DNA of 64,000 nucleotides. Source: Vicugna vicugna (taxonomy: Eukaryota). The stretch is from assembly GCA_013265495.1 (NCBI GenBank), contig MU057521.1:1252335-1316334 (forward strand), given 5' to 3'. Shown one piece after another: positions 41,521 through 48,389 of this stretch. The translations under genes were made by a program, and so were the position numbers. How positions within the stretch are numbered: the first letter of the stretch is position 1; each line of letters starts with the position of its first letter. Under the pieces are notes generated by a model. That model did no database searches and was not told the origin of the DNA. It saw only the letters and a program-made list of their open reading frames with translations.

Positions 41521-41620
41521 TGCAAATCCAGCCTACCATGAGTTATTGTTAACTGTTTTATGGTATGGTGTTGTCCATACTTCAGCACTTGTGAGGTGTA
41601 CTGCTGCTAGAATGTTTGAG
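41521..41620 (+). CDS. RELCH: RELCH coding exon, 100 nt: ANPAYHELLLTVLWYGVVHTSALVRCTAARMFE
   Basis: tctttcag|TGCA...GAG|gtatgt; phase 2 to 0. Confidence 0.95.
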
Positions 41621-42299
41621 GTATGTGTACAAATGTTTCTCTTGGTTCAGATCATAATGATTTTCTTTGGAAGAGGTAATGGGAATATTTCTCAAAAAAA
41701 GAGGGCTTTTCATACTATGTTATGTTGATTATCTTTTATGATGTTGGACAGTATCTAGTTGTGTACTGTGTGATGGGGCAGGAATTTAGCTTTGATATAT
41801 TTCAGAATGTTTTCTAGCCTTATTGGTTTCTTGAATATTATTTCCATTTCTCAGAATTTCTTTTAAATCTTACTTTAATTTCCATCCTATATAAATCTTC
41901 CTGACTATTCTATTTACTGAGGTAAAAGGCTGCCAACTAAAACAATACAGGGTATCATTAAAGTTGTAAAATATAGTTGGATTCCATGAGTAACATTTTA
42001 AAAATCAGTTATTGCAATTATGGAAATACTTATTTTATTGATTACTCCTACTTCATTATTCCCTCACATATCATATCAGGAGTAACAACATCTCTATACA
42101 TTAACTGCCCGTAGACTTAGAAGAGACCCAAGTGTAATATGGAGACTAGAATACTTACCTTTTTATCCATCATAGAGAAAATTGTGTTATAACCTAGTGT
42201 ATGTGGGTGTATAAATATATATATTTCTGGAACTTGTATTTGAGCACCAAATTGGTTTAGAGTGTTTCTTACTGCTATTGAATCTTGCCATAAAGCCGT

Positions 42300-42510
42300 A
42301 CTACCTGGGTTCAGTGTCTGTCTCTGCCACTTAATGCCGAGGTCAGACTTCTCTGTGCCTTAGTTTCCTCATGTATAAAGCGAAGATGATAATAATAAGT
42401 ATCCATCTCAAAGAATTCTTGTTAATATTAAATGAATTAATACTTGTAAAGCCCTTAAAATAGTGTCTGACACATAGTAATAAAAGCTTAACAAATGTTA
42501 ACTATCATTA
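42300..42510 (+). mobile_element. MIR SINE
   Basis: Core ctctgtgccttagtttcctcatgtataaa...tgtaaagcccttaaaatagtgtctgacacatagtaa. Confidence 0.75.
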
Positions 42511-45059
42511 TCACTATTGAGTTCTTTTTTTTTAATCTATGCTGTTACCTCACAAAATAATATAATAGTTTAGGAAACATGTATTTATCCAAACTAAAAT
42601 TGTCCCTAATATGCATGTAATTCTTAAAATATGTTAAAGCCTTTTTTTCCATAAGAAGAATTGGACATTTCTTCCTGAATTTCAGAATTTCTACATAATT
42701 TAAGATAAATTGCAATCTAAAAAATAGACCACTGATCTATTTAAAATATATACCCTCTGAAACTTTTAAATCTATAAAATATATTTGTGGAATCTAAAGA
42801 AAATTCCATTGTTATTGGAAGATTGAAAATTCTCTGTCCATGTTATTCCCACAGTTATTATACATATTTGATCAAAAAGCTAATCACGTGTTGTTTGTCA
42901 AGATAAATGCCAAAATAAAAATTCAGTTAGATGTATAGTGTAAGTTCCTTCTGAGTATAAATAATTTTTAATTATTCAGTATGCTAAAAAGAGTTACTTC
43001 CATTAAAAAGTCTTAGCCTCCTCTTCCCCTAAAAAGAAAAACGCCATCCTACTTCTGTGATCTACTTTTCATAAGACTTTATTCTAAGACCATAAAAGCT
43101 ATTTCTTTTTCTTAAACTGTTTGTTTCTAAAATGTATGTATATACTGGTGAAGCATACCATATAAGTGAAAATAATTTAAATAAATAAAATGAAGCATCC
43201 TTCCTTTTTATTTGTTTTTGTATTTTTTCTGCTTTATTTCTTACATGTGGCTTTTACCTGGTTTTGGTTTCTATGTCTTCTCTCAGTGCTGACTGGAAAC
43301 TATACCTGTGCTTAAGCAGCTTTCAGAGTTCTATCAGATTGATTATTAATTTCTGAGTCTAATTTGGGAGACTTATTTCAACATTTTTTTCAAATTCATC
43401 TATGATAAAAAAGATTTTTACTGAGCATGCAAGTAAAAATCATCAATAGGAAAAATTAAAGTTACCTTGTCAGGGAACCTTATTTCTGAACAAAATTATA
43501 TTAAAAGAGTAATTGTTTCATAAGATTTTTGATACTGATGCTTTACAATTTACAATGCCTGCTTTGCCCCCAAAATAGGTTAATTCAAAATAAAAACATA
43601 AAAAACAGGACACTTAAACTTTTAAATTTTTATAATGTGAGACCAGAAGCTGTTGAGAAGAAAGTAGGAAATGAATACACCAGGAACATAAGATAAGCTA
43701 CTTAGCGAAATTGAACACTAAATTGAGCTCTGAGTTTTCAGACAAAATGGGGAAACCCAATCAATCATGTTATTCTCATTGTTAAGTAAGAGATAATATA
43801 TTATTTCTTGATATAGCAAATTGTTATTGAAATTGATTTATAAAAGAGACTGTTGTGTGACTTCTAGTGTGACATAATGGATTTCCCAAAAGATACAGGA
43901 AAGAACTTCATATAATGATTTCTTACATCACCATAAGGAAATAAGCAGGTAACAATAAGGCAACAATTAAAAGAAGGCATGGCCTTTTTAAGACAGATGT
44001 GACTGAGTCAGTTTTCTAGCTCTACCTCTTTTTGTCTCTGAAGCTCTGGACAAGTTGTTTAACTTCTCGAAGGCTCAGTTTCTTCATCTGTTAAAACATT
44101 GATAATAATTGTACTTCATTGGGTTTAAAAAATCAAATGACAGTGTGTATAAAGTGTGTAATAATTGATAGCTCTTAAATTTTGCTTTCTGAGTTTCTAG
44201 CTTAGTAAAGAAATTAAACTTAAAAACTCCAGGACAATGAAAAATTAACCTGTTCATTAGATTATCCTTTTTTATTTTTTAATGCTTTTTGGCTGGCACA
44301 AGATAGACAGTTCAAGATATACTTTACTGATTCAAATCTAAGCTACCTTATTTATAAAATAATACAGAGAAGAAGAAGGTTTTACTTAATAGTGTTTGAA
44401 GTTCTTTACCATTTGTTTCTACCTGACATCTGTAATGTTTAAGGTAGTTACAAAAGCTCCTTTGTCATTTTATTCCTTTCCAAATTATCTATGGTTCTGT
44501 TGAAGTAAAAATATCTCAGAATACTGAAGTATATCTAAGGTGAATCAGTTGTCAAATAGTAACATTATTGTAAAATTAAAATCTTCACGTAAAAGGAGCT
44601 TTGCTCTCTTATGTGGCTAACGTGCACACGGTGTTGGGTTTTTGTTACTAAAAATTTCATGGCATCTTCCGTCTTCCATAAGGACTAATTCTGTTACAAA
44701 GTGATTAGCATTTAGGGTTAATTTGTGTTTACATTCGGAATTGAGAATGTAGGATTAGGATGTTACCCTTCTCTGTTGAACTCATAAAATTCAGTGATTT
44801 TTATAAACATAAAACAAATACAGCTAAATATTGTTCTCTTGTTCTGTGATTTTGAGTTGGTTGTTAAATGAATCATTTTATGATTAGATTATAGAAGTAG
44901 GTCTAATTGTGTTCATTTTTTTCTTTACTTGAGCTTTTAGAGAAATGCAAAACAAAGAACTATTTGTAGTTAACTACTTGGATCAGCCAAAAACATTTTT
45001 AATTCGTAATTTCATTTTCCAAATACATCACAAATTTTATATCCTTTTAGTAGTCATAA

Positions 45060-45260
45060 TAATTAAACTCACATTTCTTGAATGCCTAGTCTTTGTCAGA
45101 CACAATATTTAAGTATATTATATGCAATTAGTAGCACAATGATCCTTTAAGGTAGATGACATTGTCACCATTTTCAGATGAGAAAACTGAGTTTCAAGAG
45201 ATTATCTAAGGCCACATGACAATAAGTGGAGAGCTAGAGTCTGAACCCAGGTCTGATTCC
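45060..45260 (-). mobile_element. MIR SINE
   Basis: ccattttcagatgagaaaactgag...ctaaggccacatgacaataagtggagagctagagtctgaacccaggtctga. Confidence 0.7.
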
Positions 45261-45846
45261 CACATGAAATAAGTACTTTCACTAGGCTGTACCTTAAGAA
45301 AGAAAGCTATGTGATGTAAAAGGTGGGGAATTTTCATATGTGATCTTTAAATTTACTTGCTATAGAACAATCAGAAGCAGTTTAGTGGTGGCTGCCAGCC
45401 ATTTGAGTTTGGTTTAAAAACAGTCCAGTTTGCACTTTGTTGGTCATAACAAAATTATACCAGATTCATTTAAAGAATTTAACCATAGAACCCAGTGTGT
45501 CTTTTTTCAGCTTCTCTAAAAACAAGAACAAAAGTAAAACTTTATTTTAAAATGCATTTTAATTGGACATGGAAATTGCATAGACTATTTGACCAAAAGT
45601 ACAAACTGCCATTGAATTGGTGACAAACTGGTTCTGGGGACTGCTAGGCTGTTTAAGCTTTATTTTTCTCCTGAGCATTCTCTGCCTTTTTAAAGCACTC
45701 TAGCAGCAATATTTGCTTAGCTTCTAATTTTGGTTTTGCTTTTGTGTTTTCTCTCTTTCTCTTGGTTGTTCCTTTCTTCTTCCCGTGGCATTGTGTTTGC
45801 TCTTTCCATGCATCACCTGTGAATACCCCCTGTGCTGACCAATCAG

Positions 45847-45929
45847 CTGTTGGTGAAGGGGGTGAATGAAACTCTGGTAGCTCAGAGGGTTGTTCCTGCT
45901 CTCATAACTCTCTCCAGTGACCCTGAAAT
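45847..45929 (+). CDS. RELCH: RELCH mutually exclusive exon A, 83 nt: LLVKGVNETLVAQRVVPALITLSSDPE(I)
   Basis: aatcag|CTG...GAAAT|gtaagt; same length and phase (0 to 2) as exon B; 17/27 residues identical to it. Confidence 0.9.
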
Positions 45930-46433
45930 GTAAGTGTCACCCCTGCCTTTTACGTTCAGCGTCCCTTTCAGACTGCGCCTGTCAGGAAATAACCATCAGC
46001 TTTTAAATTCATTGAAGAACAGATTTATCTCTTTAAAATAAAATATTGGATTATGCTTACTTGATTTTAAACTTTATTATACAACTATTCATGTATCCTT
46101 TTTTAAGTCAACCTTCACAGTAAGCCTAATGTGAAGGCCATATATTGAAGAATATATTAGTAGTATTAGTCCTCAATAAACATTTCCGAAACTTAAAACG
46201 TGCTGATGGACTATTTCTTCCAAGCCAAGAAGGGATGCTCTGCTAATCTCACTAACATGTTGTTACCAGTAAGTATAGTGGCATGAACCAAAGGCTTAAC
46301 ATTTTAATGTCTCGTGTGGGTGACTAAACCAAGAAAGGCCAATGAGTCTGCCTGCCCATCCTCAGTCACAGCTAACCCAGTTCTCATTCCAGTTTACCAA
46401 ACCATTTTTTATTGCATGTTGACTGGTTTACAG

Positions 46434-46516
46434 CTGACTCTTCGAGGCATGAGTGAAGCGTTAGTTGACAAGCGGGTTGCTCCGGCCCTTGTTACCTTGT
46501 CCAGTGATCCTGAATT
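46434..46516 (+). CDS. RELCH: RELCH mutually exclusive exon B, 83 nt: LTLRGMSEALVDKRVAPALVTLSSDPE(F)
   Basis: tttacag|CTG...GAATT|gtgagt; phase 0 to 2. Confidence 0.92.
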
Positions 46517-46722
46517 GTGAGTTTCACAGACTGCGACCTTAAGTTATCCTGTCTGTCTTTTTGAGCATTCTTCTTGGTCTGCTTTTTTTTAATTTAATTC
46601 GTCATTGCTAGAGACTAATACAGTATATTTACCTTGTACTTACTTTGATATATATATTTTTATAATAATCGGTTTTTTATCTCTAAGAAAGTTTCAGTTT
46701 CCTTCTTTTTTAATTCTAACAG

Positions 46723-46786
46723 CTCTGTCAGGATTGCCACAATTCCAGCCTTTGGCACTATTATGGAAACAGTTATTCAAAGAGAG
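46723..46786 (+). CDS. RELCH: RELCH coding exon, 64 nt: SVRIATIPAFGTIMETVIQRE
   Basis: ctaacag|CTCT...GAG|gtaaga; phase 2 to 0. Confidence 0.94.
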
Positions 46787-47604
46787 GTAAGAAATGACTA
46801 GAATTTATTTAATCTGTGTACTGTTGAGGTGATGATACCACATTACCATATGGGTATCTAGGGGTTGGGGTCAGGGAGCATCATACCCTTTATTTTATTT
46901 CTTAGTTACAAGCTGGAGGAGGATCTTAGTATTTGAAAATATGATAGCCTACCAAAAGTATATTTTTACATCCTAAGGAAATCTCTAGTCTTTCTTCTCA
47001 ATTAGAAAATTAAGTATAAGCCAACTCTCAGATGTTCTGTTTTAAGCCTATCTGGATATTACAGTTTTGAATAATCCTTCAAACCAGATCTAGTTCCAAA
47101 GGCTTCTCTTATCCAGTAGACTTCTGGATAGTCTACATAAATTCCTGATTGCCAGTTTGCATAAATATGAAGACAGGTTTTGTTAGTTTCACAAATGGAG
47201 GCTAGAAGGTACCTATATTCTTGTCACTGTCATTACTTTGCCTGACATTGATATCAAGCTGCAAGCCATGTAGACTGGCCTTACCTTTTTGCAGCACACA
47301 TCTCTGTGATAACCTTGTATCATGCCTGCTTCAGGAGATTACCAAAGTCTTCTTCCCTAAAAGTGTATCTTGATTCAGAAACTTGCAATTTAATTTTAAG
47401 TTTGTTAGGTTATATCTGCAAATTAACTCTAGAGCACTTCTCAAAATTAGTATCAGAATTTTATTCTTTATTATCAAATTGGACATGCCCTTATACAATG
47501 AAAAACCCTGTACATAAGAAAATAAATTATTTGTGGACATATTACTTAGCCACTTAAATGGAAAATAAGGTTTTCCATCTCGTAGACATTTTACCCTGTA
47601 TATA

Positions 47605-47627
47605 TGTGTGTGTGTGTGTGTGTGTGT
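47605..47627. repeat. (TG)n microsatellite
   Basis: About 11 uninterrupted TG units. Confidence 0.9.
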
Positions 47628-48250
47628 ATCTATATGTGTATGTATAAATTGTTTTATAAAATTTTTTATCATAAAGGTTTCTTATAACAAAAATTAAACA
47701 ACTTTGTTAGTCGTGGGAAAAAATGTTTTCTGTTTTTTCACTTACATGTTTCACTGGTGGAGCAAAAAAAAAGAACACATCTTTTTGCAAAGCTTGCAGT
47801 CTTGGCAGAATTTCAACACGTTCTTAAATCCTAAAATAAAAATGTCTTTTAGGGAAATATGAGTAAGATGTAAGTCATTAATGACTCATTGCTTTCAGAA
47901 GGTGAATAAGTGGGTAACTTATGCTATGATTTTTTTAAGAATTATAATTTAGATACAACATCGTCATACATCTATCTTTTTTCCTAAATATTGTGGGGTC
48001 TTTTTTTGTTTTTTTACAGTCTGTCAGGGAATATTTGTGTTTTTAAAAAACAAAAAATGAATTAACAAGCATAAACAAAAATGTAAAACCTTTTCTGTGC
48101 CTAAAGACTAAACAAGTACTTATTTAACTCAAAATTTCTGTTATTATGTTGATATAAGTCATTTGAATCTAGTGCTGGAAGCCATGTTTTATGTGTATCT
48201 TTCTCTTTAATAACGCCACTCAATTTGACTGTATAATATTCACTTTTAAG

Positions 48251-48389
48251 TTGCTGGAAAGAGTGAAAATGCAGCTGGCTTCTTTCCTGGAAGATCCTCA
48301 GTATCAAGACCAGTATTCTTTGCATACAGAGATCATAAAAACATTTGGTAGAGTTGGGCCTAATGCAGAACCAAGGTTCCGAGATGAGT
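48251..48389 (+). CDS. RELCH: RELCH coding exon, 139 nt: LLERVKMQLASFLEDP...EPRFRDE(F)
   Basis: cttttaag|TTG...GAGT|gtaagt; phase 0 to 1. Confidence 0.94.

Follow-up and report, generated by a model that had tools for sequence, protein, structure and literature searches.

Two neighbouring exons of the same length, encoding two similar peptides, raise an obvious question: are both of them used and, if so, what decides between them? The pair at issue lies in a stretch of 64,000 nucleotides (nt) from Vicugna vicugna (contig MU057521.1, positions 1,252,335 to 1,316,334 of the forward strand), here called the window and numbered from its first letter. The locus is the membrane-trafficking gene RELCH, also known as KIAA1468: exon peptides spread over 21.8–56 kb of the window match RELCH, and the peptides flanking the pair are identical in the listed proteins. 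The two exons – exon A and exon B – are very probably mutually exclusive, tandemly duplicated exons of vertebrate RELCH, a pair that is itself already known.

Anatomy and use of the exon pair

Read directly from the sequence, exon A (45847–45929) and exon B (46434–46516) are each 83 nt long and are separated by an intron of 504 nt. Each is preceded by AG and followed by GT (GTAAGT for A, GTGAGT for B), and both are in phase 0, following a peptide that ends in ..ARMFE. Exon A encodes LLVKGVNETLVAQRVVPALITLSSDPE and exon B encodes LTLRGMSEALVDKRVAPALVTLSSDPE, each with two further bases. BLASTP of the pair gives 17/27 identical residues and 23/27 positives (E 2e-12); a first-pass annotation of this DNA, which had described two 83-nt exons of equal phase, 504 nt apart and 17/27 identical, was correct in every particular. 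At the level of DNA 52 of the 83 bases are the same and 20 codons differ, 10 of them synonymously: silent sites are near saturation between A and B and the duplication is therefore old. A six-frame search of the 64-kb window revealed no third copy of the exon, the A and B peptides matching only themselves and each other (E 1.9e-8), with the next best match at E 0.39. The pair and its surroundings comprise the following features.

41521–41620 (+): constitutive RELCH exon 5′ of the pair; closes with ...VRCTAARMFE and a complete codon, the same peptide standing before both versions in annotated proteins
45693–45846 (+): conserved intron block 5′ of exon A, part of a BLASTN block (45693–45999) shared with contig L001, described below; pyrimidine-rich, with CTCTCT and TCTT runs at ~45745–45790; weak 3′ splice site
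45847–45929 (+): exon A, the ancestral-like version (probable polarity; see below); 83 nt, 79/83 nt identical to L001
45956–46000 (+): 5′ arm of a predicted long-range helix in the A–B intron, from duplex energy against shuffles and an RNAalifold consensus
46202–46241 (+): 3′ arm of this helix, located where the conserved block 5′ of exon B begins; predicted from duplex energy and homologous arms in L001
46242–46433 (+): conserved intron block 5′ of exon B, with GCATG at 46281–46285 and TGCATG at 46413–46418
46434–46516 (+): exon B, the derived version (probable polarity; see below); 83 nt, 80/83 nt identical to L001
46517–46620 (+): conserved intron block 3′ of exon B; 80/105 columns identical to L001
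46723–46786 (+): next constitutive exon; with its first base the split codon becomes I when A precedes and F when B does
48251–48389 (+): following constitutive exon, carrying the TAG (48349–48351) that is met on double skipping

The length of the exons has a direct consequence: 83 is not a multiple of three, and mRNAs with both exons or with neither therefore carry early stops. Joining A to B creates GAA ATC TGA and thus a TGA stop at once; skipping both leads to the TAG at 48349–48351, within exon 48251–48389. Both of these outcomes had been predicted, and both were confirmed at the codon level. Inclusion of A alone, or of B alone, leaves the frame open through 46723–46786 and 48251–48389, the split codon reading I in the first case and F in the second. 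The earlier proposal of a frame-enforced either-or switch thus holds in its one-of-two logic; it needs qualifying in the matter of choice, for the frame sets which products are productive and not which exon gets chosen. Exon A had been noted as absent from the list of open reading frames, and the reason is that the stop-to-stop frame in which it lies (45823–45933) is only 36 amino acids (aa) long.

Evidence that both exons are used came from two protein searches. The first, for which the query was the frame running from the intron into exon B, returned 104 proteins: 99 have a B-type segment only, one starts within the exon, and four have both versions, these four being intron read-through gene models from a bird, a cobra, an eel and a trevally. 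Exon B is 27/27 identical in 54 of the 103 B-type carriers, with a minimum of 21/27, and the carriers include mammals, birds, reptiles, amphibians, sturgeon, bichir, sharks, rays, chimaera and lamprey. The second query was centred on exon A, and the best 120 of its 1155 matches added 117 new proteins; exon A is 27/27 in every one of these, which come from teleosts, bowfin, coelacanth, a catshark, monotremes, marsupials, bats and human.

Full-length proteins of A type and of B type are moreover annotated within single species. The human protein AAH11992 (P0237) is B, BAG37793 (P0112) and NP_001333164 (P0230) are A, and cDNA-derived sequences of each type are among them; in a sawshark, isoforms X1, X3, X4 and X6 are A and isoforms X2 and X5 are B. 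Full-length proteins are also encoded by intronless contigs of transcript size – P0027 is B, with 1149 aa on 4162 nt, and P0129, P0181 and P0219 are A – and these contigs are spliced mRNAs. Each exon is thus used in separate proteins, in human, sawshark and others, and peptides for both have been published. The first-pass annotation had also asked whether one of the exons might be decayed in other vertebrates: this is not the case, both versions being found from cartilaginous fish to mammals.

Some variants deserve mention in their own right. Position 7 of exon A is changed from N to H, as the sole change, in the bird and cobra models (P0001, P0008) and in L001 (2261–2343). Teleost B-like exons (P0009, P0010 and, in the fish-like contig L002, positions 1197–1279) end in TLCSGPE where the ending is otherwise invariably TLSSDPE. 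The notion that the fish B-like exon is decaying was dropped on finding the same TLCSGPE ending in the eel and trevally models; the splice sites of the L002 exon are intact, and judged from these sequences TLCSGPE looks like a kept teleost variant, without the near-universal HEAT aspartate, rather than decay. Among the matches to short query regions, two coho salmon RELCH models stand well apart in score: P0105 (1425 aa) and P0106 (1352 aa), with 336 bits over a region of 61 aa and 505 bits over one of 161 aa. Such scores suggest that part of the gene model is repeated internally; each of the two has one copy of the A-type exon.

That the RELCH switch exists, how old it is, that it is expressed as protein and that it can be manipulated has all been published already. 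RELCH is event 177 in a supplementary table of PMC8373072 (Martinez Gomez et al. 2021), entered as internal, proteomics 1, last common ancestor Vertebrata; the event is also contained in the sets of Hatje et al. and Lam et al., and the exon peptide given for it is exon B of the window, letter for letter. In Table S2 of PMC9741552 (Martinez-Gomez et al. 2022) both RELCH versions are recorded as detected, with tissue specific 1 and nervous tissues 1. RELCH is unnamed in the main texts of PMC8373072, PMC9741552 and PMC5740500; it is the supplements of the first two that name it. According to the available parts of two preprints, RELCH is among 14 events of alternatively spliced repeats whose conservation extends from primates to teleosts (ASPRING, 2023), and the ratio of its isoforms is shifted by a structure-targeting oligonucleotide, 'RELCH dock1' (SHARCLIP, 2026, 10.64898/2026.05.17.725762). 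The earlier remark that both isoforms may already be annotated therefore understated the case: annotated they are, and they have further been catalogued with peptide and tissue evidence and manipulated experimentally. The same annotation knew of no described difference in function; our search of the literature on RELCH/KIAA1468 splicing, on exon duplication and under the old mouse symbol likewise found no paper testing a functional difference between the isoforms.

Age of the two versions and their place in the protein

Lampreys bear directly on the age of the pair. The four species considered have two RELCH genes, which lie on different chromosomes and are 54% identical. With exons assigned from annotated proteins, gene 1 (P0092, P0222–P0229, P0087, P0093) is B-like only in 11/11 proteins, matching B at 24/27 positions and A at 16/27, and gene 2 (P0249, P0418, P0530–P0541) is A-like only in 14/14, matching A at 26/27 and B at 16/27. 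A quick likelihood tree built with the exon masked places gene 1 outside gene 2 and the jawed-vertebrate genes, with a Shimodaira–Hasegawa-like approximate likelihood ratio test (SH-aLRT) value of 95 and a long-branch warning. Whichever placement is adopted, both versions are, on the evidence of these sequences, older than the lamprey–gnathostome split. The view that the exon duplication is an old one is thus borne out twice over, by the presence of both versions from cartilaginous fish to mammals and by A-like and B-like forms in lampreys.

The polarity of the change can be approached through outgroups. The acorn worm Glandiceps, the nearest named outgroup, agrees with A at 7/10 diagnostic positions and with B at 1, and a limpet agrees with A at 4 and with B at 1. 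Among 149 outgroup representatives, 92 are without a recognisable segment, 30 lean towards A, 15 lean towards B and 12 tie. Insect-like metagenome contigs (L003–L007; ~2998–3078 in L004) have a single version, ATVGSSSEDVVATRVVPALVTLSSDPD, that matches A at 16/27 positions and B at 16/27; their exon is continuous with the upstream exon, and the intron 5′ of the vertebrate pair is absent. Probably, then, A is closer to the ancestral state, B having diverged early and been frozen afterwards: a single exon would have been duplicated in the vertebrate stem, A keeping the ancestral-like sequence and B diverging from it. That B might be ancestral was considered when the first lamprey matches proved B-like; the second lamprey gene and the sequence from the acorn worm reversed that view.

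Where does the exon fall in the protein? In P0230, an A-type protein of 637 aa, it accounts for residues 411–437. The Pfam HEAT model (PF02985) matches this protein at 425–454 with 59.2 bits (cut-off 23.5) and the B-type P0237 with 53.4 bits. An AlphaFold2 model based on an alignment of 48 rows is all-helical, with a predicted local distance difference test score (pLDDT) of 87.8 and a predicted template modelling score (pTM) of 0.83. Its predicted helices span 399–413, 418–433 and 438–454, and the latter two are joined by an SDPE turn as a helix-turn-helix hairpin of an alpha solenoid. The swap had been placed within a HEAT repeat, and so it is: the Pfam match overlaps the exon, and the AlphaFold2 model agrees. 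As modelled, the exon would supply the final turn of a first helix, the loop between repeats (KGVN or RGMS), all of helix A of the next HEAT repeat and the SDPE turn.

The two versions of the protein differ at 10/27 positions and at the junction residue (I/F). On a helical wheel the five substitutions in the helix – T/A, A/D, Q/K, V/A and I/V at 419, 422, 423, 426 and 430 – occupy an arc of 100 degrees, and the opposite side of helix A is filled by conserved L, V, R, P, A, L, T and L. If the model is right, the most likely effect of the five substitutions is to alter a surface or packing stripe, adjusting partner binding or the geometry of the solenoid.

As to partners, the available part of PMC5940305 (Sobajima et al. 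2018) describes RELCH as linking RAB11 recycling endosomes to OSBP for cholesterol transfer, which supports the RAB11/OSBP adaptor role assumed from the outset. Residues 904–1142 are sufficient there for OSBP binding, and RAB11 binds 497–779. In the 1216-aa form (P0033) the exon lies at ~990–1016, within the C-terminal OSBP fragment and outside the RAB11 fragment, the match between the two numberings being approximate. A 2025 preprint (10.1101/2025.05.26.656196) reports that RELCH interacts with the Rabconnectin-3 complex (DMXL2, WDR7, ROGDI) and that RELCH knockout mice have raised hearing thresholds; DMXL2, WDR7 and ROGDI are accordingly further partners on which the two isoforms could differ. 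Given the position of the exon in the OSBP-binding fragment and the reported nervous-tissue specificity, isoform-specific partner preference is worth testing.

Conserved introns and a candidate helix

The frame leaves the choice between A and B unexplained, and for this we turned to the introns. A search for related loci, with a seven-row exon alignment as query, yielded L001, L002 and the insect-like loci. L001, a metagenome contig that we call sauropsid-like because it shares the N-to-H change in exon A with the bird and cobra models, has both exons, 657 nt apart. Its identity with the window is distributed as follows.

Exon A: 79/83; exon B: 80/83 (95–96%)
Constitutive exon 46723–46786: 51/63
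Constitutive exon 48251–48389: 115/134
Intron 5′ of A, 45700–45846: 123/151 columns
Last 113 nt 5′ of B, 46321–46433: 105/114
First ~100 nt 3′ of B, 46517–46620: 80/105; remainder of the same intron: 46/102
Middle of the A–B intron, 46001–46201: 109/361

The constitutive neighbours, at 81–86%, fall below both alternative exons. That silent sites and introns are constrained suggests regulation at the level of RNA. Together with the available part of the SHARCLIP preprint, the conserved introns point to a choice set by RNA structure and regulators.

A block-against-block screen identified the best pair among the conserved blocks as ~45956–46000, just 3′ of A, with ~46202–46241, in the block 5′ of B. 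The predicted helix consists of segments of 11, 8 and 6 bp (25 bp). The window duplex has an energy of -50.9 kcal/mol compared with -34.3 +/- 4.2 for shuffled sequences, none of 300 of which reach it; for the homologous arms of L001 the values are -49.1 and -30.6 +/- 3.7, again with 0/300 shuffles. In an RNAalifold consensus with L001 the helix reappears: one of its pairs differs at both bases (U-A to C-G) and two go from G-U to A-U. The 5′ arm holds an isolated conserved island (45986–45999) amid a poorly conserved stretch. Competing docking partners were not found in the window and L001, which show one conserved duplex and no pair of alternative partners near each exon; a scan of 41621–48250 for inverted repeats gave 176 pairs, mostly AT-rich and none convincing.

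Other candidate structures were tried and set aside. The 9-mer CAGACTGCG occurs in just two copies in the 64-kb window, at 45969–45977 (40 nt 3′ of A) and 46527–46535 (11 nt 3′ of B); as a selector pair it was rejected, the copy after A not being conserved in L001 and no conserved complement being present. Between exons 46723–46786 and 48251–48389 lies a weakly conserved intronic element (47778–47888, L001:4124–4218; 68% over 111 columns). It contains the best complement to the region 3′ of B (47790–47805), a pairing for which L001 shows no compensating changes. An RNAalifold pairing of 45791–45823 with the exon B acceptor was discarded as its blocks pair no better than shuffles, and a distant branch point (ACTAAC, 46251–46256), brought near the A donor by the helix, was discarded on account of the many AG dinucleotides that precede the exon B acceptor.

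The conserved blocks also hold candidate sites for splicing factors. TGCATG (46413–46418) lies 15–20 nt 5′ of the exon B acceptor and GCATG at 46281–46285, both being kept in L001, and a CT-rich tract lies 60–100 nt 5′ of exon A. By the position rules established for these factors, RBFOX bound at the branch region represses an exon, RBFOX bound 3′ of an exon activates it, and loss of PTBP1 in neurons releases an exon that PTBP1 represses. An 83-nt mouse exon of the RELCH gene is among the 50 top predicted PTBP1-repressed exons, a prediction from sequence only, in Table 1 of PMC3907290 (Han et al. 2014).

With their early stops, double-inclusion and double-skip mRNAs should be removed by nonsense-mediated decay. 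For the choice of exon a mechanism can be proposed from these elements, with the strongly conserved introns on either side in control. The helix would then loop out the ~200 variable bases in the middle of the A–B intron; RBFOX at the TGCATG in the branch-point region of exon B would repress B, and RBFOX brought 3′ of A by the helix would activate A. The pyrimidine tract 5′ of A would be of PTBP type, so that loss of PTBP1 in neurons would free A. This RBFOX/PTBP/helix model, assembled from motifs and their conservation, predicts that A is the neural form; we regard it as possible, though rather doubtful. There is also a wider reading, for which we would put the probability at roughly 0.4: both exon versions were present in the vertebrate ancestor, jawed vertebrates kept the splice switch and lampreys split it into a B-only and an A-only gene; separately, in land vertebrates the choice may be set by the conserved 25-bp intronic helix, which would bring RBFOX sites next to A, another RBFOX site masking the branch region of B. 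If true, the lamprey genes would be a natural experiment separating the two RELCH isoforms. The two-gene split and the candidate helix are modest observations that may be new, and are best taken as leads, not findings.

A number of points weigh against the account of the pair as a whole. Table S2 of PMC9741552 is silent on which isoform is enriched in nervous tissue, as is the table of PMC3907290 on which 83-nt exon is meant. The helix rests on two sequences and one compensatory pair, its arms are just 58% (5′) and 80% (3′) identical between the window and L001, and an equivalent was not found in the fish-like L002 (z -0.3). TGCATG is not enriched in the window (36 found, 29.6 expected), and the copy 5′ of B stands in a block conserved throughout, where conservation of the motif cannot be separated from conservation of the block. 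The ancestral state is no more than moderately clear, the 57 outgroup segments dividing into 30 for A, 15 for B and 12 ties. Finally, two of the five stripe positions are hydrophobic in exon A (V, I), and the stripe, whose exposure is inferred, may be partly buried.

What else could explain the data? The conserved introns might be protein-binding enhancers and silencers only, the helix being a by-product of conserved sequence without structural role; the chance of this is considerable, if somewhat under even. The comparative base of the helix – two sequences, with a single both-sided change backing the pairing – is what one would cite in its favour, along with the lack of an equivalent helix in L002 and the failure of the first candidate pairing (3′ of B with 47790–47805) in the compensation check. 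Yet the duplex energy beats 300/300 shuffles in the window and again at the homologous positions of L001, the conserved island at 45986–45999 stands within the 5′ arm amid poor conservation, and the SHARCLIP preprint, in the part available, reports structure-dependent switching of RELCH, though the duplex concerned may differ.

It is also conceivable that exclusivity comes from the reading frame alone, with the choice stochastic or dictated by splice-site strength, decay clearing the wrong products and the two proteins equivalent. The logic of the frame is complete by itself, the literature searched offers no functional difference between the isoforms, and 23/27 positions are identical or conservative. 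We nonetheless consider this explanation very unlikely: the versions have remained near-unchanged for hundreds of millions of years (A 27/27 in 117/117 proteins from the best 120 of 1155 matches; B 27/27 in 54/103 and at least 21/27 in all), and conservation is higher at synonymous sites and in the flanking introns than in the constitutive exons next to the pair. Published proteomics, furthermore, records tissue specificity for the event, in nervous tissues (PMC9741552), and structure-aimed oligonucleotides shift the ratio in the accessible part of the SHARCLIP preprint. A further candidate is a poison event, in which one of the exons, or inclusion of both, serves mainly to lower RELCH output via nonsense-mediated decay; the immediate stop in A + B is as such an event would have it. 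Regulated unproductive splicing, too, typically goes with alternative exons and adjoining introns that are very highly conserved at the nucleotide level, which counts on the same side. Against it stand full-length proteins of both types, annotated and cDNA-derived, and the peptides reported for both versions (PMC8373072, PMC9741552). Each exon alone, moreover, keeps the frame and, as modelled, encodes a well-formed HEAT helix; we give a poison event almost no credence.

Comparison with known systems

The proposed arrangement of helix and RBFOX sites has a counterpart in the intronic stem of FGFR2 IIIb/IIIc (IAS2-ISAR) and in RBFOX 'RNA bridges', where a stem loops out a spacer and brings distal control elements, GCAUG sites among them, near the regulated exon. 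By analogy, the window helix would leave ~70 nt between the exon A donor and the conserved GCATG at 46281. The RELCH exons are not homologous to those of FGFR2, and the resemblance is one of analogy only. The partition of splice forms between gene duplicates is reportedly a subject of Lambert et al. 2015 (PMC4417111). The lamprey genes, with gene 1 B-like only and gene 2 A-like only, resemble in this respect what PMC9741552 treats under 'Tissue Specificity and Subfunctionalization', as far as the available part of that section goes.

The catalogue entry for event 177 (PMC8373072, PMC9741552) is for this very gene and exon, and records peptides as well as specificity for nervous tissue. Between it and the window there is no difference of substance; the catalogue comes without a mechanism or a function for the isoforms. 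SHARCLIP, in the part of the preprint available, describes mutually exclusive clusters controlled by RNA structure, working through TCF3 E18a/E18b as its example; RELCH is one of 11 further genes. Unlike the 'dock' sites described there, the window helix lies within one intron and is without obvious occlusion of a splice site, and 'dock1' may be another duplex. Like those clusters, however, in which a choice between two exons is tied to an intronic duplex, the window has a significant and conserved candidate duplex in the intron between exon A and exon B.

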